64,000 bases of DNA from Thermoanaerobaculia bacterium (GCA_036274895.1 DASUEU010000058.1:84885-148884), one strand, 5' to 3'; shown: positions 1,528-42,888, counted from the stretch's first letter. Notes: generated by a model from the letters alone, not told the origin. Program-made: numbers and translations.

Positions 1528-4500
1528 TCGCCCCCTCCTTCCTCGACACGGCCGAGCCAGAACAGGGCGCGGGCCGCGGCCGGCCCGGGGCCCTCGGTCT
1601 CCCCCGCCGCCTCGGCCCAGCGGGTGAAGCGCCGGCGGGCGCCAGAGTCCTCCTGGAGGCAGGCCTCCTTGACCGTGCAGGAGCGGCACCGGGGCCCCTG
1701 CTTCTCTAGGGCCGGGTCGAGCAGGCGGGGTACCCGGCTGCCCCGGGCCAGGGCCGCCACCACGGTGCCAGCCGACTTGGTGAAGGCGGGCCGGAGGGCC
1801 TCGAGCTCGTCCGGCTGGAGGCGCAGCAGGCGCTCTTCCGGCTGCCAATTCAGCTCCGGCCGGCCGAGGAAGAGATAGCCCCCACCGGGGCCATCGGACA
1901 GGGCCGAGGCGTAGGCCACGCCCTGGAGCCAGCGCCCTTGCGCCACCAGGACGGGCAGGCGTTTGCGGCTGTTGGCGGAGGCGGGTGGGTCGCTCCCCCG
2001 CTCGTCGAGGAACGGTCGACCCGCCTTGAGATCGAGCAAGGTCGGCTCCCCGGCCAGGGGCAGCAGCAGATCGGCGCGGAAGCCCACCCGCAGGCCCTCG
2101 GCGCCGGTCATGGCCTCCCCCCGCAGCTCCGCGCCCATCACAGCGGGCTGGGGCCCGAGGCCCTCGCGCAGCACGTTCCAGAACACCGCGGCCCGCTCGG
2201 CCAGGGCCGGTGTGAGCAGGGGCACCCCGTCCTCCCGGGCCACCCGCTCTGCCTCCCGCTCCAGCTCGGCGGCGATCTCGCCGGCCGGCGGCAGGGGCAC
2301 GCTCACCGGCGATCGGACCAGGGCCTCGGCGAGCTCGACCTCCACGGCCCCTCCCGCCCGCGCCACCAGCCGGGCCAGCAGAGCGTGCACCACCATGCCC
2401 ACCAGGCGCGGCGACAGCTCGGGCAGGCCGGAGCGCGGATCCGGCAAGGCGCCCAGGCGCAGCTCGCGGCCGAGGAAGCTCTGCCAGGGGCAGGCGGCGA
2501 CGGCCTCGATGGCGGTGACGGGAAGCACCTCCGGCAGGCTCCCCCTGCCGAGCAGCCCGAACCAGGGCCCCAACCGCCGAGCCCGTTCCCGGCCCTCGGG
2601 GCTGCCGAGGTCGGGGTCGAGCTCGTCGAGCACCGCCCGCCGCAGCCGCGGCGGCTCCCGCCGGCCGGCGAGGGCGAGAGCGGGAGGCAGGGCCGAGTCC
2701 CAGGCCCGGCGGTCGCCGGCCAGGCCGGCGCCGATCAACCACTCGAGGGCCGGCCAATCGCCGTCGCCCGAGGGATGCCGAAGGGTGCCAGCCGAGTTGG
2801 GTACGGCCCCCGACCAGCGCAGGCGATCGACGAACGGCGAGGCGGGCAACGGCTGGCCGGCCTCGTCCGCGACCGCCCAGGAGACCTCGACGGCCGGCGC
2901 CGAGCCGAGCAATTGGCCGAAGAGGTAGCTCTCTTCCTCCACCCCCAGCCCCTTGACCGGCAGGTCGGGCAGCAGCAGGGTGAGGGCCCGGCGCAGGTCG
3001 TCCGGCAGGAAGGGATCCTCCCGCACGGATCTGGGGAATGAACCGGCCTGCGCCCCGAGCAGGAAGAGGTGTTCGAACACCCGCCCCCTCGCCTCGGTCA
3101 CCGAGAGCAGCTGGACCCCGCTCCCGGCCCCTCCCAGGGACGGAGCATCCAGGCGCTCCTCGGCCCGCTCGGCGAGCAGGAAGAGCTCCTCGGGGGCCAA
3201 CGGCAGCTCACCCGGCAGCTCGGCCTCCAGGACCGCCAGCACCTGCCACGGTCGAGCCGGCGGGGACTCGGGGAGCCAGCCGAGGGCCTCCACGAGGAAG
3301 GTCCGGGCGTGGCGGAGGTGGGCCGACAGGGGGCGGGGCCCCCCCTCCCGTCCCGGCCAGCCGTCCAGGGCCGTCGCCGCCCGCTTCGCTCGCGCCAGCG
3401 CCGCGCGAAGCTCCGGCCCGGGCAGCCCCCGGCGCTGGCGCCCCGACCCTGCACCCTCCTCGTCCTCTCCTTCCTCGATGCTCGCCGCGATCGGCAGGGG
3501 CACTTGACCTGCGACCAGCACCGAGCCGGGATCCAGCCTCGAGAGGTCGGCCAGGCGCGAGGCCCCGAGGATGCGCAGGGCCAGGCGCAGCTCGGTGCTG
3601 CGGCCCTCCCCGGCCGCCTCCAGCCAGCGGTCGACGGGCGTCGCGGTGCCGGAGCGCAGCAGCTCGAGGAAGGCCGCCATGCGACGCTCCGGCCCGCCCG
3701 GCGAGGCGGCAGTGCCGGGAGCCGAGAACGGCACGCCGAGCCGGCCAAACGCCTCCGCCAAGGCCAATCGGTGCGAACCGACGTCCCGAGCCACCAGGGC
3801 GATGCGCTCGGGGACGGCGCCGGCATCGAGCAAGGCCCGGGCCGCCACCACGGCCCGGCGGGCCTCCGCTCCGGGCGTGGCGCAGGGGTGGAGCGACACG
3901 GCCGCGGCCTCCCCGTCCGGCTCGAGGGCGAGCTCGCTGGCCGGGCGGCCGGTGAGGCGCAGGGCCAGCCGGTCGGCGAAGGCGAGGCCGCCGGCTCGGG
4001 GGCCGGGCAAGTCGAGTAAGACCTCGGCCCGGCGGGCCACGACCAAGGTCTCGAGCAGGTCGAGAGCGAGGCCGGTGGCGTCCGCCCAGCCGTGGAGGAG
4101 AATGGCGCGGGCCGGCAGCAGCTCCGGGCGTGAGCGCAGCAGGGAAGCTGCGCGGGCGTAAGCCTCGCCGGTGCGGCCGAGCCCCAGGGCCGCGAGCTCC
4201 TCGCCGGTGTCGGCGGCCACTCGCAGCAGGGCGCGAGCCCGCTCGAGAGTGGGCTGCGGAAACGCCCCGGAGAGGGCCGCCACCCGCTCCAGGCAGGCTT
4301 CGAGATGGGCGCGTTCGAAGCCGGCGTCGAGCAGGTCCCGCACCGTGCCGGCGAGGGCGCCGTAGCCGTCGGCGAAGCCCCCGAGGGCCGCGGCCAGGGC
4401 TCGCTCGGCGCGGGCGCGGCGGCGCACCAGCACTTCGAAGACCAGGCCTCCCGTGGGCATCGGCTCCCCGGCCTCGAGCAGGGCACGACGGGCGAGGGCC

Positions 4501-4760
4501 CACAGGGTCTCGATCGCCACCCCGGCGAAGGCCCGGCCGCGGCGGGAGAGCCACGCCGCCCCGAGGTGCCCGGCGAGGCTGGTGGAAGGCACCACCACCA
4601 GCACCGCCCGGCCCAGCTCGGCGGGATTGGACTTCGCTTCGGCAGCGAGCTCGTCCAGGCGCTCGAGCAGGCGGGCCTCCACCTGGCGGGGACCTCGACC
4701 CACCGTCCACGCCGCTGCCCGCGGGCCTCTCGAGGTCGCGTCGTCGCTGTCCACTGTCAT
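1524..4760 (-). CDS. AddB-like helicase-nuclease subunit (PD-(D/E)XK nuclease with C-terminal Cys cluster)
   Basis: 1078-aa ORF with a C-terminal ..CRSCTVKEAC.. cysteine cluster like the AddB Fe-S/nuclease domain. It is directly followed by a UvrD-type helicase gene and is translationally coupled to it by an ATGA overlap at 1524-1527. Confidence 0.6.
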   Translation of the reverse strand: MTVDSDDATSRGPRAAAWTVGRGPRQVEARLLERLDELAAEAKSNPAELGRAVLVVVPSTSLAGHLGAAWLSRRGRAFAGVAIETLWALARRALLEAGEPMPTGGLVFEVLVRRRARAERALAAALGGFADGYGALAGTVRDLLDAGFERAHLEACLERVAALSGAFPQPTLERARALLRVAADTGEELAALGLGRTGEAYARAASLLRSRPELLPARAILLHGWADATGLALDLLETLVVARRAEVLLDLPGPRAGGLAFADRLALRLTGRPASELALEPDGEAAAVSLHPCATPGAEARRAVVAARALLDAGAVPERIALVARDVGSHRLALAEAFGRLGVPFSAPGTAASPGGPERRMAAFLELLRSGTATPVDRWLEAAGEGRSTELRLALRILGASRLADLSRLDPGSVLVAGQVPLPIAASIEEGEDEEGAGSGRQRRGLPGPELRAALARAKRAATALDGWPGREGGPRPLSAHLRHARTFLVEALGWLPESPPARPWQVLAVLEAELPGELPLAPEELFLLAERAEERLDAPSLGGAGSGVQLLSVTEARGRVFEHLFLLGAQAGSFPRSVREDPFLPDDLRRALTLLLPDLPVKGLGVEEESYLFGQLLGSAPAVEVSWAVADEAGQPLPASPFVDRLRWSGAVPNSAGTLRHPSGDGDWPALEWLIGAGLAGDRRAWDSALPPALALAGRREPPRLRRAVLDELDPDLGSPEGRERARRLGPWFGLLGRGSLPEVLPVTAIEAVAACPWQSFLGRELRLGALPDPRSGLPELSPRLVGMVVHALLARLVARAGGAVEVELAEALVRSPVSVPLPPAGEIAAELEREAERVAREDGVPLLTPALAERAAVFWNVLREGLGPQPAVMGAELRGEAMTGAEGLRVGFRADLLLPLAGEPTLLDLKAGRPFLDERGSDPPASANSRKRLPVLVAQGRWLQGVAYASALSDGPGGGYLFLGRPELNWQPEERLLRLQPDELEALRPAFTKSAGTVVAALARGSRVPRLLDPALEKQGPRCRSCTVKEACLQEDSGARRRFTRWAEAAGETEGPGPAAARALFWLGRVEEGGGE
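1764..1780. repeat. dispersed motif copy (inside nuclease gene)
   Basis: ggtgccagccgacttgg. Confidence 0.7.
2784..2800. repeat. dispersed motif copy (inside nuclease gene)
   Basis: ggtgccagccgagttgg. Confidence 0.7.
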
Positions 4761-4774
4761 ACTCTGCGCCCGCC

Positions 4775-5987
4775 GATGAGCACCCAGGCCCCGTCCTCTC
4801 CCGGCCGCGCCGCCCTCTTCGCGGTCTACGCCACGGTCTTCCTCGACCTGCTCGGCTTCGGGATCCTGCTGCCGGCGCTACCCTACTATGCCGAGCGCCT
4901 GGGGGCCTCGGGCACCGGCGTGGCGTTGCTTTTCGCGTCCTACTCTTTGGCCCAACTGGTCGGGGCCAACCTGCTCGGCCGGCTCTCCGACGCCCGCGGC
5001 CGGCGCCCCGTGCTGCTGCTCTCGCTGGTGGGCTCCGCCCTGGGGATGACCGCCTCGGGCCTCGCCCAGAGCCTGCTCACCCTGTGCGCCGCACGGGCCC
5101 TGGCCGGCCTCTCAGGGGGCAGCATCGGCACCGCCCAGGCGTTCATCGCCGACACCACCACGCCGGAGCAGCGCCCGGCTCGCATGGGTGGGCTCGGGGC
5201 CTCGATCGGCCTCGGCTTCGTCGCCGGCCCGGCCCTGGGCGCCCTGCTGCTCGGCCGCGGCCTGGGCTTCGCCGGCGCCGCCTTCACCGCCGCCGCTCTG
5301 GCCCTGGCCAACCTGGTGTTCACCTTCCTGGTGCTGCCGGAGTCGCGCCGGCCCGGCGCGGCGCCCACCGCCTCGCGGGGCCTGGCCGCCTGGCGCACGG
5401 CGGTCAGTCGGCCGGTCCTGCGGCCGGTGCTCGCCGCGTCGTTCCTGGTGCTCGCCGCCTTCGTCGCCATGGAGACCACCTTCGCCCTCTGGACCGAGGA
5501 GCGCTTCGGCTTCCGGGAGCGGGAGTTCGGCCTGGTGCTGACCCTCGCCGGAGCGGTGATGGTGATCGTCCAGGGCGCTCTGGTGGGCCCGATCAGCCGG
5601 CGTTTCGGGGTGCGCCGGGTGGCGGCTGCCGGCGGCGCCCTCCTCGGCCTGGCCCTGGCGGCGATGCCCTGGGCCCCGGGCAAGGCCTGGCTGCTGGCCA
5701 ACGTGGTCGTGATGGCCCTGGGCCTGGGCCTGGCCCTGCCGAGCCTCTCCTCCCTGCTCTCCCAGCTCTCGCCCGCCGAGGACCAGGGCACCGTGCTCGG
5801 CGCGGGCCAGTCCCTCCAGGCCCTGGCCCGGGCCACCGGCCCGCTCGCCGCCGGCCTCCTCTTCGACCTCGGCCCCGCCCTGCCCTACCTCTGGGCGGGG
5901 GGGTTGGGGCTGCTGGCGGCTTGGGTGGTGGGGAGAGGGAGCTACAGCACCGTGCCGGTCAACACCGCCCGGGCCACGGAGAAGTAG
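4775..5987 (+). CDS. MFS transporter (Tet/drug:H+ antiporter-like)
   Basis: Starts MSTQAPSS... at ATG 4775, inside the longer ORF 4305..5987. It has 12 predicted TM segments and the MFS signature GRLSDARGRRPVLL. Confidence 0.8.
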
Positions 5988-7279
5988 AACAGCAGCCCGA
6001 AGACGTCGACCAGGGTGGCGACGAAGGGGGCGGAGGCGCTGGCGGGGTCGAGGCCGAGGCGTTTGAGGAGGAGGGGCAGCATGGCCCCGGAGAGGGTGCC
6101 CCACAGCACCACGCCCAGCAGGGCTGTGCCGATGGTCAGGGCGTAGAGCAGGTAGTGCTCGCCGTAGGTGCCGAAGGCCTGCTCCCAGATCACGATGCGG
6201 CCGATGCCGATCGCCGCCAGGATCAGCCCCAGGGCCAGGCCCGAGGCCAGCTCGCGGCGGGCGATGCGGTACCAGTCGCGCAGCCTCACTTCGCCCAGGG
6301 CCATGGCCCGGATCACCAGGGTCGAGGCCTGGGAGCCGGAGTTGCCACCGGAGGAGATGATGAGGGGCACGAAGAGGGCGAGCACCACGGCCTTGCTGAT
6401 CTCGTCCGCGAAGCGGCCCATCGCCGAGGCGGTGATCAGCTCGCCGCAGAAGAGCAGGGCGAGCCAGCCGGCCCGCTTCTTGACCATCTCGCCGAGGCCG
6501 GTCTCGAGGTAGGGAGCGTCGAGGGCCTCGAGGCCGCCCAGCTTGTGGATGTCCTCGGTGGCTTCCTCCTCGACCACGTCGACGATGTCGTCGACGGTGA
6601 CGATGCCCTTCATCCGCCCCTCGGCATCCACCACCGGGATCGCCGTCAGGTCCTCCTCGGCGAAGACCCGGGCCACCTGCTCCTGGTCCATGTCCTCGGG
6701 GACGGTGACCACCTCGCGCTGCATCACCTCGTGCACCGGCCGGGCACCCGGAGCGGCGAAGAGGTCCCGGAAGGAGACCACGCCCAGCAGCCTCTGCTCC
6801 GAGTCGAGGACGTAGACGTAGTAGAGGGTCTCGAGCCGCCCTCGCGCCTGGAGCCGCAGGTAGCTGATCGCCTCGTCCACGGACATGTCGGGCCGCAGGC
6901 GGGCGAAGCGGGGGCTCATCAGGCCGCCGGCTTCGTCCTCGGCGTACGCCAGAAGAGCGCGCACGTCGCGCCGGGTGGGCTCGTCCAGCAAGCTCAGCAG
7001 CTCGGGACGCTCCTCGGGCTCGAGCTCCTGGAGCACGTCGGCGGCGTCGTCCGGGGCCAGCAGGCGCAGCCAGACCCGCTGCTCGGTCGGGCGAAGCTCG
7101 ACGAGGAGGGCTGCCTGGCCGTGGGAGGGGAGGCTCTGGAAGAAGTCGTCCGCCTCGGTCGGATCGAGCAGACGGAAGCCCTCGACCTGCTCGGGAGGCG
7201 CCAAGGCCGGCCAGGCCTCGTGCAGCTCCTCGGCGGTCAGCCGGGTGGTGGGGACGAGCGTTTCCACGGCGCGGAGCAT
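5942..7279 (-). CDS. mgtE: Magnesium transporter MgtE
   Basis: 445 aa with an MgtE N-domain, tandem CBS domains and the C-terminal MgtE TM domain (..ISSGGNSGSQ..). Confidence 0.85.
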   Translation of the reverse strand: MLRAVETLVPTTRLTAEELHEAWPALAPPEQVEGFRLLDPTEADDFFQSLPSHGQAALLVELRPTEQRVWLRLLAPDDAADVLQELEPEERPELLSLLDEPTRRDVRALLAYAEDEAGGLMSPRFARLRPDMSVDEAISYLRLQARGRLETLYYVYVLDSEQRLLGVVSFRDLFAAPGARPVHEVMQREVVTVPEDMDQEQVARVFAEEDLTAIPVVDAEGRMKGIVTVDDIVDVVEEEATEDIHKLGGLEALDAPYLETGLGEMVKKRAGWLALLFCGELITASAMGRFADEISKAVVLALFVPLIISSGGNSGSQASTLVIRAMALGEVRLRDWYRIARRELASGLALGLILAAIGIGRIVIWEQAFGTYGEHYLLYALTIGTALLGVVLWGTLSGAMLPLLLKRLGLDPASASAPFVATLVDVFGLLFYFSVARAVLTGTVL

Positions 7280-7344
7280 AACCGCAACGGGCCGCCTCCG
7301 AGCCCGTCGTGACGGCGTCGTTACGGCCTCGCCGTAGCCGGAGT

Positions 7345-8484
7345 CTAGCGGCCGAAACGGCGCTGGCGCTGGTGGTAGGAGCGCAGGGCCCGCAGCAGGT
7401 CGATCTTGCGGAAGGCGGGCCAGTTGGTGTCGCAGAAGTAGAACTCGGAGTAGGCGCTCTGCCAGAGCAGGAAGCCCGAGAGGCGCACCTCACCGCTGGT
7501 GCGCAGGATGAGGTCCGGCTCGGGCAGCCCCGAGGTGTAGAGGTGGGGCTCGATGGTCCGGTCGTCGAAGCCGGCGATCACCTCGTCGAGCTCCTTGCCC
7601 TGGCGCTTCGACTCGGTGAGGAAGCTGCGGAAGGCGTCGGTGATCTCTTCGCGCCCGCCGTAGGCCATGGCGATGTTGAGCTGGAAGCGCTCGTAAGCGG
7701 CGGTGACGCTCTCTGCCCTCTCGATCGCCGCCTGCAAGCTGTCCGGCAGCAGCTCGAGCTTGCCCAGGTAGCGCACCCGCACCTCGTTGGTGTGCACGTC
7801 GGAGTGTCCGGCGAGGCGCAGGGTCTCGCGCTCGAAGAGCTGGAGCAGGGCCTCCACCTCGGAGGTGTCCCGGGAGAGGTTGTCGAGGGAGAAGCTCCAC
7901 ACCGTGACCACCGGGATGTCGAGCTCGTAGCACCAGGAGAGGACTTCCCGCAGCTTCTCGGCCCCCCGCTCGTGGCCGAAATGCGAGCCGCCCAGCCCGC
8001 TCTCCCGGGCGAAGCGACGGTTGCCGTCCATGATGATGCCGATGTGCCGGGGCAGCCGCCAGGTCGGGACCTCCTCCATCAGGCGCTTCTCGTAGAGGAG
8101 GTAGAAGGGCCGCTTGATGAAGCCCTTGAGCGTCTGCCAGACGAAGGAGAGGCGGCGCGGGCGTGCTTTGGGCGCGGGAATCGAGAGAGGTGCGGTCAGG
8201 GGTTCACCCTCGGGTGCCGAAATGCCGTGGAGGCATGATGTTACACCAAACGGCGAGCTGGGGCGGGGCGCCCCCCTCCGGCTGGCTTCCGTCCGTGGCC
8301 GAGCCTCGCCGCTTCGCTCTCGCCCGGGTGGTCCAGCGGTGCTGGAAGAGGAACTTCCTGCTCGCGCTCGAAGCCGCCGGGGCGAGCGAGGATGAGGCGG
8401 GCGGGATCGCGGCGGCGATGAGCCTGGGGGAGGCGGGTTGGAGAAGGCTGGGGGGTGGTGAGGTGAGTGCTCACTAACGTTCAT
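7345..8484 (-). CDS. cis-isoprenyl (Z-prenyl) diphosphate synthase, UppS family, Rv1086-like; true start uncertain
   Basis: The C-terminal 263 aa align along their full length with the UppS fold: HIGIIMDGNRRFA, YGGREEI, LILRTSGEVRLSGFLLWQSAYSEFYF, RRFGR. From memory it is closest to Mycobacterium Rv1086 short-chain Z-FPP synthase (PFYLLYEKRL.. matches PLYRLYELRL..). The 120-aa Pro/Arg-rich N-terminal stretch of the ORF looks non-coding, but no ATG/GTG/TTG exists in frame near the homology boundary. Confidence 0.75.
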   Translation of the reverse strand: MNVSEHSPHHPPAFSNPPPPGSSPPRSRPPHPRSPRRLRARAGSSSSSTAGPPGRERSGEARPRTEASRRGAPRPSSPFGVTSCLHGISAPEGEPLTAPLSIPAPKARPRRLSFVWQTLKGFIKRPFYLLYEKRLMEEVPTWRLPRHIGIIMDGNRRFARESGLGGSHFGHERGAEKLREVLSWCYELDIPVVTVWSFSLDNLSRDTSEVEALLQLFERETLRLAGHSDVHTNEVRVRYLGKLELLPDSLQAAIERAESVTAAYERFQLNIAMAYGGREEITDAFRSFLTESKRQGKELDEVIAGFDDRTIEPHLYTSGLPEPDLILRTSGEVRLSGFLLWQSAYSEFYFCDTNWPAFRKIDLLRALRSYHQRQRRFGR

Positions 8485-8602
8485 CGCCTGAGCGGCGCCG
8501 CCAAAGGCGGTGACCGCCTCCAGGCGCCGGGTTCTGCGTGGAGGTCACGCGCTCCAGGCTCTTCGCGTAGTCGATTCCTGGTGCGAAGCCCGTCGAAGCC
8601 CG

Positions 8603-9154
8603 TCATCGCGCCGCTCTTGCGATCATACGCAGAAACTGCTGAAAGACGAAGTACAGGGCAACCCCTGTGAGTACCCATAGCACCAGCGTAGCGAGCATGA
8701 TCGATGCGCTTCGGTAGTGGAGCCAGGTCCCGGCGCCGATCAGAGGAGCCTGCAGGAACAGAGCGCGCAGTATCCTGACCCTGCCTCTCCGGCGAAGTAG
8801 GCGATCGCGCTGTCCCTCACATCCAAGGAGCCTCTCTTCGGCCGAGTGGAAGAGAGCTCCGACCGCAGGAGCAGCGCTGCGCTGGTGGAAGCGGGTCCAG
8901 TTCCGCCCGTTGTACCATTTCAGGTAAGGAAGTGACGCCAGATAGCACAGATGATCGACCACGGTTCCGAGTGAGTAGCAAGCAACGAGAAGGACGAAGA
9001 GCAAGGATGGTCCCAGGTTGTCCGGGAGTCGAGTTATCCAGTCGATGAGAGACTCCGGGGAGCTGCCGCTCACGGCCAACCCAAAGAGGCTGATCCAGAG
9101 GGCGGCGAGGCAGCCAACGACGAGGTACTCCGCGATGAGTGTCGTCCAACTCAT
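8603..9154 (-). CDS. hypothetical 4-TM membrane protein (low-GC island gene C)
   Basis: 183 aa with four hydrophobic helices and ordinary codon/amino-acid composition in a ~52% GC segment. I recognise no family. Confidence 0.5.
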   Translation of the reverse strand: MSWTTLIAEYLVVGCLAALWISLFGLAVSGSSPESLIDWITRLPDNLGPSLLFVLLVACYSLGTVVDHLCYLASLPYLKWYNGRNWTRFHQRSAAPAVGALFHSAEERLLGCEGQRDRLLRRRGRVRILRALFLQAPLIGAGTWLHYRSASIMLATLVLWVLTGVALYFVFQQFLRMIARAAR

Positions 9155-9274
9155 GACTCACCTATGGTTCGCTACTAACCGCCCTTTGCCGTCGCCGAAC
9201 GTTCATCGCCTCACCGCCGCGCACCAGCGCGGGCAGTGCAGGCAGTGGTTGGGCAACTCTAGATGACGTCAGGT

Positions 9275-10405
9275 TCACTGACTTGCCCCAATCTCTTTGA
9301 GTTTAGAAGCCATATCAAGAACCTCTTGCACCGCAGTCTTAGGTGCCTCGCCGAACGGTTGAGGCGAGACTGAGACTGTCTTTACGACCTCCCTTCTCAG
9401 AAGAGCACTTGCCTCTTGGTCAGAAGCAATGAGTTGCAGCGACTCAGCCTTCTGAGCAAGGACAGCAGCCTGGTGGCTGTGGTATTTGTAGACAGAAAAG
9501 AAAATCTGAACAAGCAGGAGAGTAAGCACAGCGATGGTAGCGCGGATCGCAATATCAGGCCAGCTTGTTTGTGACTGGGTCTGAATCGTCTTTAACAACT
9601 GCTCATAGCTCTGGCTATGGCTATAGTTTTGACGAATCTCGCTGAGGAGTTCCGGTGCGCGCTTCTGGAAGAACTCTCGGGCTTCGCTTGAGACAGCTTC
9701 CTTCTCAAGACGCTCCATTACGGTGGCCAGTCGAAGCACCTTGTACCTCTCGGCCTCTACGTCACGGAGGCGCTCGACATGACTACTCATCCAGAGTCCT
9801 ACAGAGGCGCCCCCGCCGATGAAGACAAGAACAAACATCGCGGCCATACTGATTCGGCTCGTTCGCTCGGCTGCAAGGCTTCTGGCGTAAAGCCTTCGAG
9901 TTACCAGACCTAGAGCCTTCTGCGATGTCTCTGGCTCTAGTGCAGATGGCAGAGACACAGAGGCATCGCTATCCTCAAGGCCTTGGTCCCGGTGCGAGTT
10001 TGGAGCCGACTGAATGTCAATGCCTGACGAGTGTTCAGCACGGGCTACCCGAGAGAGGAGCACCGAGAGTACTCCGATTAGAGATATTCGCACCCCCGCG
10101 GTAATCGCTTCGGCGACGCCGGCCGGCACACTCAATATGTATTGTGAGAATGAAGCTACAATTAATTCCTGGGCAAAAAAAAGGAGAAAAAAAGAATGAG
10201 GCAATACTTCCCATGGCCCAGATAGTTTACCAAGGCGGACAACATGGCGTGCTATCTGCGCCATCAGAAGTGCGGAGACAAGCCCCAAGAGAAACCACGC
10301 GTCGATACGATTGCCAGATAAGAAGCGGACATAACTAGTCGTAACCCCGACGACAGCTGCCAAGGCGACAAGCCAGGTGCTCGAGCTGGGTTGCACGATT
10401 GCCAT
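9275..10405 (-). CDS. hypothetical multi-pass membrane protein with central coiled-coil (low-GC island gene B)
   Basis: Likely starts MAIVQPSS at ATG 10405, preceded by a GAAGGGGGAAG RBS. The listed ORF extends to 10540 through an inverted repeat. It has four N-terminal TM helices, a fifth TM, an Arg/Glu-rich coiled-coil, a further TM and a C-terminal tail. Confidence 0.55.
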   Translation of the reverse strand: MAIVQPSSSTWLVALAAVVGVTTSYVRFLSGNRIDAWFLLGLVSALLMAQIARHVVRLGKLSGPWEVLPHSFFLLFFAQELIVASFSQYILSVPAGVAEAITAGVRISLIGVLSVLLSRVARAEHSSGIDIQSAPNSHRDQGLEDSDASVSLPSALEPETSQKALGLVTRRLYARSLAAERTSRISMAAMFVLVFIGGGASVGLWMSSHVERLRDVEAERYKVLRLATVMERLEKEAVSSEAREFFQKRAPELLSEIRQNYSHSQSYEQLLKTIQTQSQTSWPDIAIRATIAVLTLLLVQIFFSVYKYHSHQAAVLAQKAESLQLIASDQEASALLRREVVKTVSVSPQPFGEAPKTAVQEVLDMASKLKEIGASQ

Positions 10406-10472
10406 CTTCCCCCTTCCAATATCTAGCCTCTCAGAGTGTTGAGCTCTGTCGCCCAACGTTTGAGCTGAGGCG

Positions 10473-10559
10473 CCCGCAACGGCAGGCCGCCTTGGCCGGG
10501 CAGCCGAGAATGGCCGAAGGCTGAGCGGCTGCCCGGCCAAGGCGGCCTGCCGTTGCGGG
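10473..10559. repeat. perfect 34-bp inverted repeat (19-nt loop)
   Basis: cccgcaacggcaggccgccttggccgggcagccg at 10473-10506 is exactly the reverse complement of 10526-10559. Confidence 0.9.
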
Positions 10560-10591
10560 TCGCATCGAGCGAAGGGTTAGGCATCGCCGGG

Positions 10592-11596
10592 CTACGCGAG
10601 CTTGGACTGAAGAAAGCGAACGAGTGCTATCGCGCCGTCGATGCCTTGCTCGACCTGTGGGGCCTCGACGTCCTTCTGCGCGATGTTTCCGTGAACCAGA
10701 TCGTTGCGAATGCCACGTAAGCGATCAACTGCATCGATCGCAGCTTGAACCCTGCGGAGGTCGGTCTTGCCGAGAGAGAGCGGAAGGACGATGTTTAGGA
10801 GGTTGTTGAACGTAAGTTCATCACGAAGGCGCTTGATCTTGTTGTTGCTGAAGCCGCTCTCCTTGAGGGCTTTGAGCCCGTATGCTCGAAGCAGCGTCTC
10901 GGAGATGATAGACGCCTCGATGGCGGCTGCACGTAGCTCCCGCCAGCCAGCTTTCCCTCGGATTCTGTAGAGCTCAAGAAGCTCGCCTTCAGGAAAGGTC
11001 CCATTGTCAGCGGCGCGCTGCATGTCGCGCCAGCGTACGGGAGTGACTAGTTGCGCGGCGGTGTACAGCGGGTTGCGGCCGCGTGGTTTGGTTAGCTTCG
11101 GCTGAAATGGGGTGAACGTCGTTCCGTCAACGCTCCACTCAACTTGACCGCGAGACAGTCTGCCGCCGGTAAAGAAGTTGGTCATCGACTCGGGACCCAT
11201 CCGCATCAGGTAGCGCACCTTCCCAGCTGAGTACAAGAGGGCCTCGAACTTGGTGTGCGCTTCTACGTAGGCATCGTAAATGGCTTCGGCGGCAGTAGCA
11301 CTAGCCGTGCCTTTGCGCGAGAGACTTTGGACGAGATCCGGGGGCGCTGGGGCGTAGTGAAGTTCGATTCGACCACTTGGGAAGAGGATCACGTCTCGCT
11401 TCCAAGGATGCTTCTCTTCCTCCAAGTAGACGAGCACCTTGGCGCGCGTCAGCTGCATGGACAGCGGGGTATCGTGATCCTGCTTCCGCCACTTTGATGC
11501 GCCAAAGCTCGGGAAGTCGATCGGCCTGCGGATGATGAGCTGCGACATACAGTGGATGCGATGCCTAACCAGTAAGCGTCTTTCCGAAGTCCGCAC
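10592..11596 (-). CDS. hypothetical protein with C-terminal HEPN-like R-x4-H motif (low-GC island gene A)
   Basis: The ~110-aa alpha-helical C-terminus contains ..DRLRGIRNDLVHGN.. (RNxxxH) at 10691-10708. The alternative ATG start at 11548 would give 318 aa. The N-terminal 200 aa match no family I recognise. Confidence 0.5.
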   Translation of the reverse strand: MRTSERRLLVRHRIHCMSQLIIRRPIDFPSFGASKWRKQDHDTPLSMQLTRAKVLVYLEEEKHPWKRDVILFPSGRIELHYAPAPPDLVQSLSRKGTASATAAEAIYDAYVEAHTKFEALLYSAGKVRYLMRMGPESMTNFFTGGRLSRGQVEWSVDGTTFTPFQPKLTKPRGRNPLYTAAQLVTPVRWRDMQRAADNGTFPEGELLELYRIRGKAGWRELRAAAIEASIISETLLRAYGLKALKESGFSNNKIKRLRDELTFNNLLNIVLPLSLGKTDLRRVQAAIDAVDRLRGIRNDLVHGNIAQKDVEAPQVEQGIDGAIALVRFLQSKLA

Positions 11597-11972
11597 GTGG
11601 TTGGGTATGGCAGATCGCCCCGGGGGCCATCGAGGGCTCCCCGGAGACGCGCGGATTTCGGAAAGACGTGCGTTGGACGAAGCCGCGGGCCGCTGGCGCA
11701 GGTCTATGGAGTTTGAATCGAGCGCTGGTGAAGCGGCGCAGGGAGGGGGTCCTGGTCTGAGCCTCGCTCGCCGGGGCGCGGGTGCCGCGCCAGCGGGCGT
11801 GCCGAGCCTCCGGGATCTGATTCCTGCTGCTTAGCAGTTGCACGGTGGAGCGATTTTAGCACTGCGCACCTCCGGGCGCAGAGAGGCTTCCTGGGGCCCG
11901 AGCTGTGGGCCGAGCGAGGAGGGTTGGGATCATGGGGCAGCAGCTCCGGCGCCGGGCGGAGGGCGGGCGCGA

Positions 11973-12113
11973 GCCACCGCCGGTGACGACCGTGCGCTCG
12001 TGGGGATGAAAGGTCAGGGTCTGGCTCCAGGTGTAGAGGGCGGAGAGCAAACCGATTTCCGCACCGAGGTGCTTGGGGTCGGCGGCGCCGAGGGCGTCCA
12101 GGAACTTGAACAA
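11973..12113 (-). pseudogene. IS91-family (Y2 HUH) transposase remnant
   Basis: The fragment ..LLSALYTWSQTLTFHPHERTVVTGGG.. matches the conserved IS91 Tnp block (..LHTWGQNL.LHPHLHCLVTGG..) with the HUH histidines degraded. It is only ~47 aa and the surrounding frames are broken. Confidence 0.4.
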
Positions 12114-12191
12114 GTACGGCCCAGGTCACCGGGCCTTCTCAGCCAGCCGGTCGAGGACGTCGACCCGCCTCCAAGATAAGCTTCGACGCTC

Positions 12192-13673
12192 ATGCTCCGG
12201 ATCCAGCTCCCCCGTGGCGGCCGGGCCGTCGGCCTGGTCCTGGGCGTCCTCGCTTACCTCGCGATCTTGTTCTTCGCGACGCCGCTCCGGGCGGATCCGG
12301 AGTGGGGTGCCCGGCCGGCCTTGGCCGCCGCAGCAGCAGCGCTCATGGCCATCTGGTGGCTCAGCGAGGCGATCCCGATCTACTGGACGGCGGCGTTGCC
12401 GCTGCTGCTTTTCCCCGCCTCCGGCGTGTTCGGCCGCGGCTTCTTCGGCGACCTCGCCCGCACGGTCGACGCCTACGTCGACCCCTACCTCTTCCTCTTC
12501 GCCGGCGGCATGGCCATCGCCGGCGCCATGCAGCAGTGGAACCTCCATCGCCGCATCGCGCTCTCCGTGATGAAGGCCATCGGCACCGAGCCGGCGCGCC
12601 TGCTGGCCGGCCTGCTCGCGGCCACGGCCTTCATCTCGCTGTGGATCTCCAACACCGCCACGGCCGCCATGATGCTGCCCATCGGCCTGGCCCTGATCGC
12701 CCAGATCGAGCGTTCGACCGGCGGCCGGCGCCTCCAGCATTACGGCGCCGCCCTGATGCTCGCCATCGCCTACGGCGCCAACGTCGGCGGCATCGGTACC
12801 AAGATCGGCACGGTGCCCAACGCCCAGTTCGCCGGCTTTCTCGAGCGGCGGGGCACGCCGATCTCCTTTCTCGAGTTCATGGCCGTGGGCCTGCCCTTCG
12901 TGCTGATGTTCCTGCCCGTGGTCTGGCTCGCCCTCTGGCGCATCGGCCGCAAGGAGGACTTCGGCGCCGCGGTGGGTGCCGGGGTGATCGCCGACGAGCT
13001 CGCCCGCCTGGGGCCGGTGCGGCGTGCCGAGAAGCTGATCCTCGGCGTCTTCGCCGCCACCGCCCTGGTGTGGATCTTCGGCAAGGGCCTGGGGGCGACG
13101 CTCGCCCGCGCCTGGCCGGGGGCCGGCATCACCTCCGCCCACGTCGAGGGAGGGGTGGCGGTGCTCGCCGCCCTCGTCCTGTTGCTCTTGCGGGCGGAGC
13201 GGCAGCCGGTGCTCGCCCTCGCCTCGCTCAAGGCCGTGCCGTGGGAGACCCTGCTGCTGCTCGGCGGCGGCTTCGCCCTGGCGGCCGGGGTGCAGGACAG
13301 TGGCCTCTCAGCCTTCATGAGCCGGGGGCTCACCGGCATCCGCGACCTGCCCCCCGGGCTCCAGGTGGCCATCGCCGCCCTCGCCGCCGTGGGCATCTCG
13401 GCGGTGGCGAGCAACACCTCGACCATCGCCGTGCTGCTGGTGGTGCTCGCCGAGGCCGTGTCACCGGAAGCCCTCTCGACCGTCCTCTTCACGGCCACCA
13501 TCGCCGCCTCTTGCGACTTCGCCCTGCCCGCCGGCACTCCGCCCAACGCCATCGTCTTCGGCAGCGGCTACGTCACCATCCCGCGCATGGCCAAGACCGG
13601 CGTGCTGCTCGATCTCGCCGCCGCCCTGCTGGCCGCGGCCTGGTGCTGGCTGGTGGTCGACCTGGTGCTCTGA
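12192..13673 (+). CDS. DASS/SLC13 family anion:Na+ symporter
   Basis: 493-aa polytopic protein with the SNTATAAMMLPI (SNT) motif of divalent-anion:sodium symporters. Confidence 0.8.
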   Translation: MLRIQLPRGGRAVGLVLGVLAYLAILFFATPLRADPEWGARPALAAAAAALMAIWWLSEAIPIYWTAALPLLLFPASGVFGRGFFGDLARTVDAYVDPYLFLFAGGMAIAGAMQQWNLHRRIALSVMKAIGTEPARLLAGLLAATAFISLWISNTATAAMMLPIGLALIAQIERSTGGRRLQHYGAALMLAIAYGANVGGIGTKIGTVPNAQFAGFLERRGTPISFLEFMAVGLPFVLMFLPVVWLALWRIGRKEDFGAAVGAGVIADELARLGPVRRAEKLILGVFAATALVWIFGKGLGATLARAWPGAGITSAHVEGGVAVLAALVLLLLRAERQPVLALASLKAVPWETLLLLGGGFALAAGVQDSGLSAFMSRGLTGIRDLPPGLQVAIAALAAVGISAVASNTSTIAVLLVVLAEAVSPEALSTVLFTATIAASCDFALPAGTPPNAIVFGSGYVTIPRMAKTGVLLDLAAALLAAAWCWLVVDLVL

Positions 13674-13682
13674 GCGCCGCCT

Positions 13683-16133
13683 CTACTCCGAGCGTAGGGT
13701 CTCGCTCGGTGCCACCCGCGCCGCCGTGCGCGCCGGCAGGAAGTTGGCGACCAGGGCCACCGCGGTGATCAGCGTCGGGATGAAGACGAAGGTCAGGGGG
13801 TCCATGGCGTCGATGCCGAACAGGAACTGGCGCAGCAGCTGGGAGGCGGCCAGCGCCAGCAGGATGCCGATGCCCAGACCGAGACCGACCGTGCGCATGC
13901 CTTCCCCGACCACCAGCCGCACCACGTCGCGGGTTTCGGCGCCCACGGCCATACGGATTCCCACCTCGCGCCGGCGCCGAGCCACCGAGTAGGCCACCAC
14001 GCCGTAGATCCCCACCGCCGCGAGCAGGATGCCGAGCAGGCCCAGGAGGCCGAGGATCAGGGCTCCCATCCGCGCCGGGAAGAGCATGAAGGCGAGGTGC
14101 TCGGAGAGGGTCTTGAGCTCGAAGATCGGCACCTCGCGGTCGATCTCTTCGACCGTGCGGCGGATCGGGCCCAGGAACGAGCTGGCGTCCCCGGCCACAG
14201 CGACCACAACCCCGGCCATGGCGTTCCAGTCCTGGTCGTGGGCCCGGTAGACGAAGGGCCGCGGGGACTCGCCGAGCGTGCGGTACTTGCCATCAGCCGC
14301 GACCCCGATCACCTCGTGCCAGGGCTCATCCTCGCCGAAGCGAACCCTCTTGCCCAGGGCCGAGATCCCCGGGAAGTGCTGCTGGGCGGCGGTCTGGTTC
14401 AGGATCACCACCCGCGGCGCCTCGGCCGAGTCGCCGGGGCCGAAGTCACGGCCGGCCACCAGCTCGATGCCCAGGGTGCGGAAGTAGCCGCTGCCCACTT
14501 CGACCGTGTCGATCGCCGGGGCCTGGTCCCAGTCCTCGATCACCTCGCCCTCGGCCGCCATCGAGTTGACGTGGACGTTGGCGCCCAGGGGCAGATGCCC
14601 GACGATCGCCGCCGAGCGCACGCCGGGCAGGGCCGAGAGGCGCTCGACGACCTGCCGGTAGTAGACCCGGCCCTGCTCCTCCGACAGCCGGTTGCCGATG
14701 CCCGGGGCGAGCTGGACCATCACGCCGTCGCGCAGAGAGAAGCCCGGGTCCACCTTCTGGAAGCTGCCGAGGCTGCGCAGGAAGAGGCCGCCGCCGATCA
14801 GCACCAGGGTCGAGACCGCCACCTGCCCGACCACCAGCATGTTGCGCAGGGTGAAGCGCCGCCGGCCCGAGGCCAGGCCGCCCTCCCCTCCCTTGAGGGA
14901 GGTGACCAGGTCGGCGCGCGAGGCAGAGCGCGCCGGGGCGAGGCCGCAGGCGAGGCCGGTGACCACGGCCACCACCAAGGTGAAGAGCAGCACCCGGCCG
15001 TCGAGGGAGACGTCCAGCACCAGCGGGATGGGCAGATCGGGGGTGGCCCGCACCAGCAGCTGAGCCAGCAGCAGGGCCACGCCCAGCCCGGCGACGCCGC
15101 CCATGGCCGCGAGCAGGAAGCTCTCGGCCAGAAGCTGGCGGATCAGCCGGAAGCGCCCCGAGCCCAGGGCGAGGCGCAGGGCGATCTCTCGGCCGCGGTC
15201 CGAGGCCCGGGCCAGCAGCAGGTTGGCGATGTTCGAGCAAGCGATCAGCAGCACCAGGCCGACGACCGTCATCAGCAGGGCAGCCACGGCCTTGAGCGGC
15301 TTGTCGAGGCCGGGGTTCAAGGCCACGTCCTCGGCAGGGACCACCCTGACCTTGCGGCCTTCGTTGGTGTCCGGGTAGGCGGCGGCCAGCCGCGCGGCAA
15401 TGGCTCCCAGCTCGGCCTCGGCCATCTGGGGGGAGATTCCGGGCTTCAAGCGCCCGCGCAGGAACAAAGAGCGGGCGCCCCGCTGCTCGAGCCGCGGGCG
15501 CTCGGCGACGCGATCGCTCATCGCGAGCGGGATGAAGTAGTCGACGGCGACCACCGAGAAGGTGCCCTTGAAGCCCTCGGGAGCCACGCCGATGACGGTG
15601 AAGGGCTGACCGTTCAGGGTGAGGCTCTGGCCGACCACTCCCGGATCGCCGCCGAAGCGGCGCCGCCACAGGCTCTCACCGAGGATCACCACCGCCGCCG
15701 CGGTGCCGGCCTCGTCTTCGGAGGAGAGGAAGCTGCGCCCGAGCTGGGGCTTGCCCCCCCAGAGGTCGAAGTAGTTGGCCGAGACCTCCTCACCGAAGAG
15801 CAGCTCGGAGCGCTCCCCCGCGGGAGAGGAGGCGATGCCCATCTGCTGGGCGGCGATCTGTTCGAAGCTGGTGGCCGAGCGGCGTATGTCGAGGTAGTCG
15901 GGCACCGAGAAGGTGGCGTAGGCGAAGCCGCTGCTGTCCGAGAAGTAGATCTGCGCCAGGCGCTCGTCATCCTGCCCGGAGGCCCCGCGCCAGAGCACCG
16001 CGTCGATCACCGAGAACAGGGCCGTGTTGGCCCCGATGCCAAGGGCCAGGGAAAGCACCGCCAGCCCGTTGAGCCACGGCCGGCGCGCAAGCTCACGGCC
16101 GGCGAAGCGGAAGTCCCTCAACAGTCCATTCAT
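13683..16133 (-). CDS. ABC transporter permease, duplicated FtsX/MacB-like (ADOP family)
   Basis: 816 aa with an N-terminus MNGLLRDFRFAGRELARRPWLNGLAVLSLALGIGANTALFSV typical of acidobacterial duplicated orphan permeases, and two FtsX-like 4-TM modules. Confidence 0.8.
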   Translation of the reverse strand: MNGLLRDFRFAGRELARRPWLNGLAVLSLALGIGANTALFSVIDAVLWRGASGQDDERLAQIYFSDSSGFAYATFSVPDYLDIRRSATSFEQIAAQQMGIASSPAGERSELLFGEEVSANYFDLWGGKPQLGRSFLSSEDEAGTAAAVVILGESLWRRRFGGDPGVVGQSLTLNGQPFTVIGVAPEGFKGTFSVVAVDYFIPLAMSDRVAERPRLEQRGARSLFLRGRLKPGISPQMAEAELGAIAARLAAAYPDTNEGRKVRVVPAEDVALNPGLDKPLKAVAALLMTVVGLVLLIACSNIANLLLARASDRGREIALRLALGSGRFRLIRQLLAESFLLAAMGGVAGLGVALLLAQLLVRATPDLPIPLVLDVSLDGRVLLFTLVVAVVTGLACGLAPARSASRADLVTSLKGGEGGLASGRRRFTLRNMLVVGQVAVSTLVLIGGGLFLRSLGSFQKVDPGFSLRDGVMVQLAPGIGNRLSEEQGRVYYRQVVERLSALPGVRSAAIVGHLPLGANVHVNSMAAEGEVIEDWDQAPAIDTVEVGSGYFRTLGIELVAGRDFGPGDSAEAPRVVILNQTAAQQHFPGISALGKRVRFGEDEPWHEVIGVAADGKYRTLGESPRPFVYRAHDQDWNAMAGVVVAVAGDASSFLGPIRRTVEEIDREVPIFELKTLSEHLAFMLFPARMGALILGLLGLLGILLAAVGIYGVVAYSVARRRREVGIRMAVGAETRDVVRLVVGEGMRTVGLGLGIGILLALAASQLLRQFLFGIDAMDPLTFVFIPTLITAVALVANFLPARTAARVAPSETLRSE

Positions 16134-16228
16134 GGTCAGCTCCTCTCGGGGAGATCAACGACGCCAACGCGGTTCGGTTACAGCGCGGTTCCGCGGTTTT
16201 CCGTCTACGTCGTAGAGGAGGAGTCGAC

Positions 16229-41626: not shown

Positions 41627-42055
41627 GTGGCGGCCCCGTCCCTGCTTGACACCAATTCGGCTGGCACCTACAATTGCACCATGACGCAAACGTGCAATCT
41701 GGGCGATCGACACGCCTGCTGCGCCCAGGTGGGTGCCCTGCTCCGGCCGGAGCTGTTCCGGGCCCTCGCCGACCCGACCCGCCTGGCGGTGCTGCTCCGG
41801 CTCGTTGAGCTCGGCCGGCCGGCCACCGTGTCCGAGATCGCCTGCTGCTGCCCGATCGACCTTTCCGTGGTCTCTCGCCATCTGGCGGCCCTCAAGGCCG
41901 CGGGAATCACTACCTCCAAGAAGGAAGGCAAGGAGGTGCGCTACCGCGTGCTCTATGCCTCGCTGGCCGCAACCCTGCGCGAGCTGGCAGCGACGATCCT
42001 CGCCTGCTGCCCGTCGCAAGAGGACCCGGAACCCAACCCAGGAGAAACTCCATGA
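41627..42055 (+). CDS. arsR: ArsR/SmtB-family metalloregulator
   Basis: Winged-helix block ELFRALADPTRLAVLLRL with Cys pairs. The start is either GTG 41627 or ATG 41681. Its stop overlaps the arsM start as ATGA. Confidence 0.8.
   Translation: MAAPSLLDTNSAGTYNCTMTQTCNLGDRHACCAQVGALLRPELFRALADPTRLAVLLRLVELGRPATVSEIACCCPIDLSVVSRHLAALKAAGITTSKKEGKEVRYRVLYASLAATLRELAATILACCPSQEDPEPNPGETP
41652..41668. repeat. dispersed motif copy (arsR 5' region)
   Basis: ccaattcggctggcacc. Confidence 0.7.
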
Positions 42056-42888
42056 GTCGTCCCGAAGAGGTCCGTTCCACTGTCACGGCTTCCTACACCC
42101 GAGCCGTCCTCCAACTCGGTACCGGCTGCTGTGGCGGAGGCGCCAAGGGCGTCGCCGCCCGAGTTGCCGGCTACCAGAGCGAAGAGCTCGCCGCGCTGCC
42201 CGCCGACGCGGTCGCCAACTCCTTCGGCTGCGGCAATCCCGTGGCCTTCGCCGGTGTCCAGGAGGGCCAAGTCGTGCTCGACCTCGGCTCCGGCGCCGGC
42301 ATCGACCTCCTCCTCGCAGCCCGCAAGGTCGGGCCGACCGGCAAGGTCATCGGCGTCGACATGACCGAGGCCATGATCGAGCGGGCCCGGGCCAACGCCG
42401 CGGCGGCCGGACTCTCCAACGTGGAGGTACGCCGCGGGATCATCGAAGAGCTGCCAGTCGAATCTTCTTCGGTCGACTGGGTGATCTCGAACTGTGTGAT
42501 CAACCTCTCCCCCGAGAAGGACCGCGTCTTCGCCGAGATCGCCCGCGTGCTCAAGCCGGGCGGGCGAGTGCTGGTGTCGGACATCGTGGCGGAGGACCTC
42601 CCCGCCGCCGTGCGTGAGAACCCCGACCTCCACTGCCAGTGCGTGGCGGGGGCGATCTCTGAAGCCGAGTACCTGGCAGCACTCGAACAGGCTGGCTTCA
42701 CCGAGGCCAGTGTCGAGGATCGCCTGTTCTACGACCCCGAGCAGCTCCAGGCCCTGGTCGAGTCCGAGCTGGCCGGGCAGGCAGCTTCCTGCTGCGGCAG
42801 CTCCCTCGCCGACCTCTCGGCCGACCTCGTCGCCTCCTTCGCCGGCAAGGTGTGGAGCGCGCGGGTATCCGCCACCAAGCCGGTCTGA
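42052..42888 (+). CDS. arsM: arsenite S-adenosylmethionine methyltransferase
   Basis: SAM-MTase motif VLDLGSGAG. ArsM cysteine pairs (GCCGGG, FGCGNP, CQC, SCCG) and VISNCVINL are present. Confidence 0.85.
   Translation: MSRPEEVRSTVTASYTRAVLQLGTGCCGGGAKGVAARVAGYQSEELAALPADAVANSFGCGNPVAFAGVQEGQVVLDLGSGAGIDLLLAARKVGPTGKVIGVDMTEAMIERARANAAAAGLSNVEVRRGIIEELPVESSSVDWVISNCVINLSPEKDRVFAEIARVLKPGGRVLVSDIVAEDLPAAVRENPDLHCQCVAGAISEAEYLAALEQAGFTEASVEDRLFYDPEQLQALVESELAGQAASCCGSSLADLSADLVASFAGKVWSARVSATKPV

Follow-up and report, generated by a model that had tools for sequence, protein, structure and literature searches.

The attC sites of integron gene cassettes have the layout R''/spacer/L''...L'/spacer/R', with an inverse-core box RYYYAAC and a core box GTTRRRY. 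Where attC sites are clustered and no integron integrase accompanies them, the cluster is called a CALIN (Cury et al. 2016, PMC4889954; Néron et al. 2022, IntegronFinder 2.0), and the origins described for them are loss of the integrase, rearrangement driven by transposable elements, and insertion of cassettes at secondary attG sites (PMC4889954; 10.1101/2022.09.11.507474). Cassettes are enriched in genes for toxin-antitoxin (TA), defense, and membrane or secreted proteins (PMC10661359), and phage-defense genes have been reported as bacteriophage resistance integron cassettes (BRiCs) (Kieffer et al., 10.1101/2024.07.02.601719). A further family of relevance here is Ribo L-PSP-HEPN (PF18735), an active HEPN family distantly related to AbiD/AbiF (Anantharaman et al. 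2013, PMC3710099). In our study, we analyzed 64,000 nucleotides of a contig from a Thermoanaerobaculia bacterium (Acidobacteriota) metagenome-assembled genome (MAG) (GCA_036274895.1 DASUEU010000058.1:84885-148884), a stretch that we call the window and whose positions are counted from its first letter, and in particular a low-GC island at 8490-11680 that carries three genes, here named A, B, and C. A preliminary description, made from the sequence alone, had seen in this island a candidate defense or toxin module combining a HEPN protein with two membrane proteins. Our results make it likely that the island is instead a CALIN-like cluster of three separately mobile integron cassettes with no detected integrase, one of which encodes a putative HEPN ribonuclease (RNase).

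The locus resembles the described CALINs in that candidate attC-type sites, at least two in number, lie within 4 kb, its co-oriented cassettes hold a single gene each and are mostly without known function, no integrase lies nearby, the cluster is small (the majority of CALINs comprise under six sites), and the remnant of a transposable element stands alongside. It differs from them in that, of its three or four sites, only one reaches significance by itself, as judged with custom models rather than with IntegronFinder; its setting is a Thermoanaerobaculia MAG, and the absence of an integrase refers to the window. In the manner of a BRiC, gene A is a compact defense-like gene that forms a cassette with an attC site, and, as has been reported for some BRiCs, its homologues also occur away from integrons, where their attC sites are decayed or pseudo sites; unlike BRiCs, which are located in mobile class 1 or 2 integrons, it belongs to a chromosomal array without an integrase. 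The word HEPN is absent from the main text of the BRiC report (10.1101/2024.07.02.601719). Gene A shares with the Ribo L-PSP-HEPN family (PF18735) a C-terminal HEPN domain with the RNxxxH active-site motif, but it has neither the endoRNase L-PSP fusion nor the ParB operon of that family (PMC3710099), and it has an N-terminal domain of its own, 187 residues long.

Three genes and their attC-type sites

Three co-oriented open reading frames (ORFs) on the minus strand occupy the island, as the preliminary description stated, and their intergenic spacers measure 186 and 120 nucleotides. Gene A (10592..11548) encodes 318 amino acids; it had formerly been extended to a GTG at 11596, and we place its start at the ATG at 11548 because its homologues are 318 amino acids long. 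Gene B (9275..10405) encodes a multi-pass membrane protein of 376 amino acids, and gene C (8603..9154) a small membrane protein of 183.

The most complete of the sites is attC_A (10451..10582, minus strand, 132 nucleotides), between genes A and B. Read on the minus strand, it consists of R'' GCCTAAC, a spacer CCTTC, the L'' arm, a 34-bp stem, L', a spacer TCAAAC, and R' GTTGGGC, whose G is at 10457. The boxes are paired, the spacers (5 and 6 nucleotides) are unpaired, three single-base bulges lie on the 5' arm (R''-L''), and the 34-bp stem is terminal. This stem is the perfect palindrome that had been noticed as part of the supposed module: an inverted repeat at 10473-10559 with perfect 34-nucleotide arms (10473-10506 and 10526-10559, 19 nucleotides apart) does exist, but it is the variable stem of attC_A and does not belong to a module. 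The repeat is present once in the window, with a fold z-score of -8.7 as RNA and -9.6 as DNA. The R'' box and its spacer, GCCTAAC CCTTC, are identical to those of a foreign attC site in contig L009. Two other identities were considered for this hairpin and rejected: that of an intrinsic terminator, as no U-tract follows it and a terminator scan did not call it, and that of a dispersed repetitive extragenic palindromic (REP) element, which is ruled out because the hairpin is a single copy in the window.

The site after gene B, attC_B (9194..9254, minus strand, 61 nucleotides), has R'' GCCCAAC, R' GTTCGGC (G at 9200), and bulges. After gene C there is a weak or degenerate candidate, attC_C (8472..8536, minus strand), with R' GTTAGTG (G at 8478); the 3' halves of attC_C and attC_B are homologous and form a 23-nucleotide direct repeat (8476-8498 and 9198-9220, 87% identical) with a spacing of 722 nucleotides. 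A fourth site, attC0 (11563..11678, minus strand; R'' GTCCAAC, R' GTTAGGC), ends 15 nucleotides upstream of the gene A start codon, contains a 22-nucleotide imperfect inverted repeat (fold z-score -4.2), and is possibly the attC of a lost upstream cassette. The sequence GTTAGG-(C/T)ATCGCA...ATG, which leads from the R' box of attC0 into the 5' untranslated region of gene A, is common to the window and loci L051 and L066. Pairs of complementary RYYYAAC...GTTRRRY boxes 50-150 nucleotides apart occur three times in 64 kb, all within the island (9144-9254, 10451-10582, and 11563-11678), and shuffling of the island gives a mean of 0.16 such pairs, with a probability of 0.0025 for at least three. 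The hexamer AACGTT occurs five times in the 64-kb window, and three of the five lie at the 3' boundary of each gene.

Covariance models built from foreign attC sites

We scanned the whole window, unfiltered, with model R1, a covariance model built only from the six attC sites of contig L009, which are near-identical and canonical (GCCTAAC CCTC GTTGCAGCGG...CCGCTGAAC TCA... GTTAGGC). Model R2 draws on 12 attC sites, taken from six foreign contigs, and contains no sequence from the window. The controls for both models were 537 kb of loci, in which the best score was 18.1 bits for R1 and 17.2 bits for R2. The two best matches of R1 in the window are attC_A (10582..10451, minus strand, 20.4 bits, E 0.005) and attC_B (9254..9194, minus strand, 15.0 bits, full length). 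With R2, the full-length scores are 29.2 bits for attC_A (E 5e-6), 14.5 for attC_B, and 12.3 for attC_C (8536..8472, E 0.56); these three are the only full-length matches among the top four of the window, and all are on the coding strand. Thus attC_A is the top match in the window and exceeds every control with both models; under R2, attC_B ranks second among all matches and among full-length ones, and attC_C fourth and third, respectively. Partial matches in GC-rich sequence at 55-60 kb were rejected as attC sites, being ordinary hairpins that form no repeat family.

The same models find attC sites beside homologues of the three genes in other genomes. R1 matches directly 3' of A homologues in L057 (28.5 bits), L080 (22.8), and L065 (17.3), and directly 3' of a C homologue in L011 (27.3 bits), where it also finds further sites of that array. 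R2 located sites outside its training set near A homologues in L051 (on both sides), L061, L066, L068, and L072, and others that flank a second family of C homologues in L014. Over 29 aligned sites, 84.5% of the cells are paired, versus 25-41% when the partners are slid, 15 of 20 pairs show compensatory changes, and the observed value was reached in 0 of 500 shuffles, in an alignment that was fitted to the model and hence favors structure.

Proposed cassette limits and cassettes in other genomes

With the crossover set between the G and the TT of each R' box, the island divides on the minus strand into cassette A (11568..10457, 1112 nucleotides), cassette B (10456..9200, 1257 nucleotides), and cassette C (9199..8478, 722 nucleotides), the last having the same length as the spacing between the two copies of the direct repeat in attC_B and attC_C. 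Between cassette A and its Nitrospira copies, homology starts at 11567-11577, which is the position of the attC0 R' box GTTAGGC (11569..11563). Each cassette holds one promoterless ORF, all three in the same orientation, with the attC at the 3' end, and cassettes of the same gene families recur in other arrays. Homologues of A have an attC upstream, downstream, or on both sides in L051, L057, L061, L065, L066, L068, L072, and L080. In the L009 array, one cassette is the B homologue P0110, whose stop codon is followed after 48 nucleotides by a canonical attC, and C homologues stand in cassette arrays in L011-13 and L014-16 with an attC directly downstream (L011 1047-1104, 27-56 bits; L014 2208-2305, 29.9 bits).

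Some of these arrays have further features. The array in L009 (5700-15300), with at least six near-identical attC sites, is typical of a sedentary chromosomal integron and holds the B homologue; an IS1595 transposase lies in the same region, and just upstream of the first cassette a 14-residue fragment (5771-5812) is 86% identical to the IntI1 'ATPHTLRHSFATAL' box. The array in L011 and L012 (e.g., L012 1214-3812) has five attC matches, and the cassette that follows the C homologue encodes an Mrr_cat restriction-endonuclease-like protein, a defense-type cargo. The Nitrospira-type contigs L001, L003, L005-L008, and L054 carry the A cassette in one syntenic slot by plsY with a decayed or shortened attC (e.g., L001 8961-9025), in which R'' and L'' are retained and GTTAGGC/T follows 30-65 nucleotides downstream. 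These copies have the appearance of one cassette that was inserted away from an integron, comparable to a single attC site lacking an integron integrase (SALIN), and was then inherited vertically.

Genes A, B, and C in other loci

No second member of the trio was found in any of the 47 other loci that we compared (39 with A, 2 with B, and 6 with C). This search of other genomes for the three-gene combination had been proposed in the preliminary description, and its result speaks against the module, as does the presence of a separate attC-like site after each gene. The closest homologues of A (75-89% amino acid identity) are solitary in Nitrospira-type contigs, in the slot beside plsY and without B or C; BrnT/BrnA-type and T5orf172 genes lie near these copies. 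Thirty further metagenomic loci with an A homologue contain neither B nor C, and the contigs of the B and C homologues (L009, L010, L011-16) contain neither A nor a second trio member. At the nucleotide level, gene A of the window is 73-83% similar to the Nitrospira copies, and this similarity is confined to the gene and about 20 nucleotides on either side. Clustering of all neighboring ORFs in the 39 loci yielded no conserved neighbor of A, apart from the Nitrospira synteny and a recurring BrnT. The idea that the HEPN RNase and the membrane proteins act as partners loses its footing here: since the genes do not co-occur, A has no conserved partner, and the attC-like sites are separate, their pairing in the window appears to be an accident of cassette order. 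Nothing ties B or C to A, and their being partners of A in a module is not supported.

A variable slot between the symporter gene and uppS

The island has 58.3% GC between flanks of 72.3% and 71.4%, with 70.7% in the remainder of the window. It is the lowest-GC 3.2-kb stretch of the 64 kb, the runner-up outside the island having 66.1% (mean 69.9%, standard deviation 3.5), and the sliding GC, which is 0.68-0.77 before the drop, is 0.52-0.62 from about 8600 to about 11600. The abrupt drop reported earlier is therefore real, but the value of about 52% given for it is true of gene B alone (53.3%); genes A and C have 58.6% and 60.3%. In other host loci too, the gene families of A, B, and C have a GC content below that of their surroundings.

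On one side of the slot is a Na+/sulfate-type symporter gene, and on the other uppS. With the UppS protein encoded there as the query, 34 loci were retrieved from genomes, the closest relative being L017 (Thermoanaerobaculia MAG040), with amino acid identities of 93% for UppS, 97% for MgtE, 93.5% for the symporter, and 88% for a MacB-type permease. When the window was compared with L017 by blastn, the only aligned blocks were 5942-8266 and 12169-16151. We take the foreign segment to be 8267..12168 (3.9 kb), because the alignment leaves that stretch out, and it is not present in the closest relative. In L017, the slot holds 4.7 kb with a 744-residue ORF resembling a TonB-dependent receptor and ORFs of 463 and 228 residues resembling a histidine kinase and a response regulator, as read from their translations; L018 also has a different content in the slot, at native GC. 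The trio is thus not found in synteny at native GC in these relatives, which carry other cargo, and the refuting check named in the preliminary description does not overturn horizontal acquisition. Together with gene A, which is 83% identical at the nucleotide level to Nitrospira genes with the similarity limited to the gene, the other genes in the slot of a relative with 88-97% identity in the flanking genes support the earlier suggestion that the segment is foreign and was acquired horizontally.

Several details of this region are worth recording. The uppS ORF as listed (7345-8484, minus strand) encodes 379 amino acids from an ATG at 8484, of which the N-terminal ~130 are a low-complexity extension; the Pfam domain begins at residue 151 and the homology with L017 stops at 8266, and the true start is probably near 8100. 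The stretch 8267-8471, which separates the last attC from the conserved flank, is unassigned DNA. A second, smaller indel relative to L017 consists of about 1.3 kb extra in L017 (12152-13444) between mgtE and the next conserved block, the corresponding point in the window being 5933-5941. Just inside the variable segment, the array is bracketed by a 22-nucleotide inverted repeat (8375-8396 and 11757-11778, 82% complementary), whose placement resembles that of the terminal repeats of a carrier element. We rejected this repeat as meaningful ends, given that many chance pairs are equally good in GC-rich DNA.

Gene A encodes a protein with a C-terminal HEPN domain

Gene A has an N-terminal domain of residues 1-187 (11548..10988) and a C-terminal HEPN domain of residues 188-318. 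The HEPN assignment made earlier holds: the C-terminal domain has the HEPN fold, an all-alpha up-down helical bundle, and the expected sequence features (Rx4-6H and a conserved acidic residue) are present as the motif R281-N-D-L-V-H286 (RNDxxH) and E211, both invariant in 42 sequences. For the N-terminal domain we found no structural relative, neither L-PSP nor another known fold, and a PDB sequence search with the profile of the A family gave one chance match (E 0.53). Searches of PADLOC-DB 2.0, NCBIfam, and PHROGs with A, B, and C returned no useful family, and tblastn of A against plasmid and phage collections returned no match. About 25 of the 105 homologues of A have a precomputed match to PF18735, from which we take the A family to be related to PF18735 and the window member to be divergent. 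Some records of these homologues are labeled Nitrospira, Gammaproteobacteria, and Candidatus Peregrinibacteria.

No MNT nucleotidyltransferase antitoxin, the neighbor expected of a HEPN-MNT toxin-antitoxin pair, is conserved beside A across the 39 loci. The neighborhoods of its homologues include DUF4238 and Cas1 (L056), a NACHT NTPase (L071), and a type III restriction-modification (R-M) system with a Schlafen/AlbA protein (L065); BrnT toxins lie near some homologues, and TA genes of the BrnT/BrnA type occur in Nitrospira and in L063/L064. In L065 (322-1332, minus strand, and 4137-9817), the A homologue has an attC directly 3' and stands between a Schlafen/AlbA helix-turn-helix gene and the type III R-M system. 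A divergent Xer-like tyrosine recombinase lies upstream and scores 72.6 bits against TIGR02249 (integron integrase; cut-off 265). With a recombinase that is Xer-like and far below that cut-off, we rejected L065 as a complete integron; it may be an atypical integron-like platform.

On the basis of these protein features, a defense or toxin role for the putative RNase A alone is plausible. Judging from fold, motif, and neighborhoods, A would most likely be a HEPN ribonuclease whose Rx4H/E site is restrained or triggered by the N-terminal domain, and the single gene may serve, as a cassette, in abortive infection or as a toxin.

Genes B and C encode membrane proteins

The preliminary description of two membrane proteins holds for both genes. 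By the Kyte-Doolittle scale, gene C has three strong hydrophobic segments and gene B five hydrophobic segments. Gene B has a strong ribosome-binding site, AAGGGGG; that of C is AGGTGAG. A word index found four homologues of B, and 154 cluster representatives came from an exhaustive search with its profile. Conservation resides in the C-terminal half (residues ~170-375), and some remote members have variable N-terminal domains (PDZ, BNR). Pfam and PADLOC searches with B and 10 remote members gave no family for the shared C-terminal membrane module, and gene C, with ten homologues, has no family in Pfam, PADLOC, NCBIfam, or PHROGs.

Integrase and IS91 remnant

No integron integrase was detected in the 64-kb window of the 215-kb contig by tblastn with a manually entered IntI1 query, and the 11700-12168 interval between attC0 and the symporter gene is too short for an integrase gene. 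Because no integrase was found and there is no room for one in that interval, the element would fit the definition of a CALIN (PMC4889954). The only match to IntI1 is a 68-residue similarity at 41920-42120 (plus strand, 30 bits) without a tyrosine-recombinase motif. It is 36.8% identical (E 0.004) to IntI1 residues 205-269, the region specific to integron integrases, and lies among overlapping ORFs of high GC; the similarity is probably due to chance, and it could be a relic of an integrase 30 kb from the array.

The IS91-family transposase remnant that had been noted beside the island is confirmed, though it is tiny. It lies at 11856..12113 (minus strand) and matches PF04986 (Y2_Tnp) with E 1.4e-4 over profile positions 1-30 of 183. 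The matching fragment is of about 50 residues, with stop codons and frame breaks around it, and the element is not intact.

Discussion

The explanation that we consider likely is that of integron cassettes captured independently, each made of one promoterless gene and a folded attC. On the minus strand, the layout would be the IS91 remnant, attC0, A, attC_A, B, attC_B, C, and attC_C. Independent capture would explain why the genes are co-oriented, low in GC, and unrelated in function, and why elsewhere they occur alone or with other partners. The cluster might have arrived with the neighboring IS91-type rolling-circle element, might be what remains of an integron that lost its integrase, or might have been placed at a secondary attG-type site by an integrase supplied in trans. 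Given the adjacent IS91-family remnant, delivery by a transposon is plausible.

Several of our results weigh against this interpretation and the role proposed for A. The scores of attC_B (14.5-15 bits) and attC_C (12.3 bits) fall inside the range of chance matches in the controls, and attC_B is marginal alone because those matches reach 17-18 bits; what speaks for these two sites is that their place and strand are as expected, and they are weak on their own. The attC0 site scores 9.8 bits with R1, and we keep it as a candidate only because of this poor score. Our attC models are custom and not the curated model of IntegronFinder, and their E-values are rough. The integrase search used a manually entered query on 64 of 215 kb, and the competence of the sites for recombination stays predicted. 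As for gene A, PF18735 matches the window protein with 19.6 bits (E 9e-4), below the Pfam gathering threshold of 28.4; PADLOC gave nothing significant for it, Csx1 being the best at E 0.053; no sigma-70-like promoter and no obvious ribosome-binding site were found for the gene; and in Nitrospira, with its fixed position beside plsY and its decayed attC, A behaves as a resident chromosomal gene.

Other explanations of the island have points in their favor. That A, B, and C form a single co-functional defense or toxin operon, with the HEPN RNase working together with two membrane effectors, is suggested by their adjacency, common orientation, low GC, and short spacers (186 and 120 nucleotides), and HEPN-membrane pairings are known in conflict systems, where fusions to transmembrane domains are listed (PMC3710099). 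We regard this as highly improbable: none of the 39 A, 2 B, and 6 C loci holds another member of the trio, neighbor clustering gives A no conserved partner, a strong attC with a 34-bp stem lies between A and B, attC-like sites are present after B and after C, and the homology to the Nitrospira copies ends within 20 nucleotides of the ends of gene A. Alternatively, an IS91-type rolling-circle transposon could have brought a generic genomic island whose hairpins are terminators or REP-like sequences with a coincidental likeness to attC. The IS91 remnant abutting the island, the attC_B and attC_C scores within control noise, and the lack of a detected integrase in the window agree with such an origin. 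We nevertheless consider it improbable, given that attC_A is well above all controls, has the complete attC layout, and shares its R'' and spacer with an attC of L009, that its hairpin has no U-tract and is unique in the window and so not a dispersed REP, and that homologues of A, B, and C stand in clear-cut cassette arrays elsewhere; besides, delivery by IS91 and cassette identity are mutually compatible. The sharp break in composition, the MAG source, and the presence of proteins A and B on a single recorded contig each would also fit an assembly chimera, in which a foreign 3.9-kb piece was misjoined into a Thermoanaerobaculia contig. Both flanks, however, stay syntenic with those of relatives, the contig having a recorded length of 215 kb, and relatives hold variable cargo at exactly the same slot; an internal double chimera is unlikely, and we give this explanation very little credence.

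Within the cassette explanation, the role of A may be read in more than one way. Tentatively, the A family could be a new single-gene abortive-infection system that has spread as an integron cassette over distant phyla (records labeled Thermoanaerobaculia, Nitrospira, Gammaproteobacteria, and Candidatus Peregrinibacteria), with the N-terminal domain as a phage sensor that releases the HEPN RNase. It is also conceivable, if rather doubtful, that the cassette array is genuine and that A is an addiction-type toxin that stabilizes arrays, or a benign RNA-processing enzyme, and not an anti-phage protein. TA genes are abundant in cassettes and are thought to stabilize arrays (PMC10661359), A stands beside BrnT/BrnA-type genes in Nitrospira and L063/L064, and one syntenic site is retained over several Nitrospira contigs; on the other hand, no antitoxin-like partner is conserved beside A, and its diverse homologues adjoin R-M, NACHT, DUF4238, and Cas1 genes, a setting typical of defense genes.

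These results indicate that a low-GC island of co-oriented orphan genes may simply be a set of integron cassettes, and that a perfect intergenic palindrome may be an attC. They add a probable integrase-less cassette array in Thermoanaerobaculia, of which one cassette, that of A, has moved recently between Nitrospira-type and Acidobacteriota genomes. The cassette of A would fit recent work in which integron cassettes were found to stockpile compact anti-phage systems, and its protein, in which an N-terminal domain precedes the HEPN domain, is a concrete candidate, with 105 homologues, no annotation in defense databases, and neighborhoods rich in defense genes.

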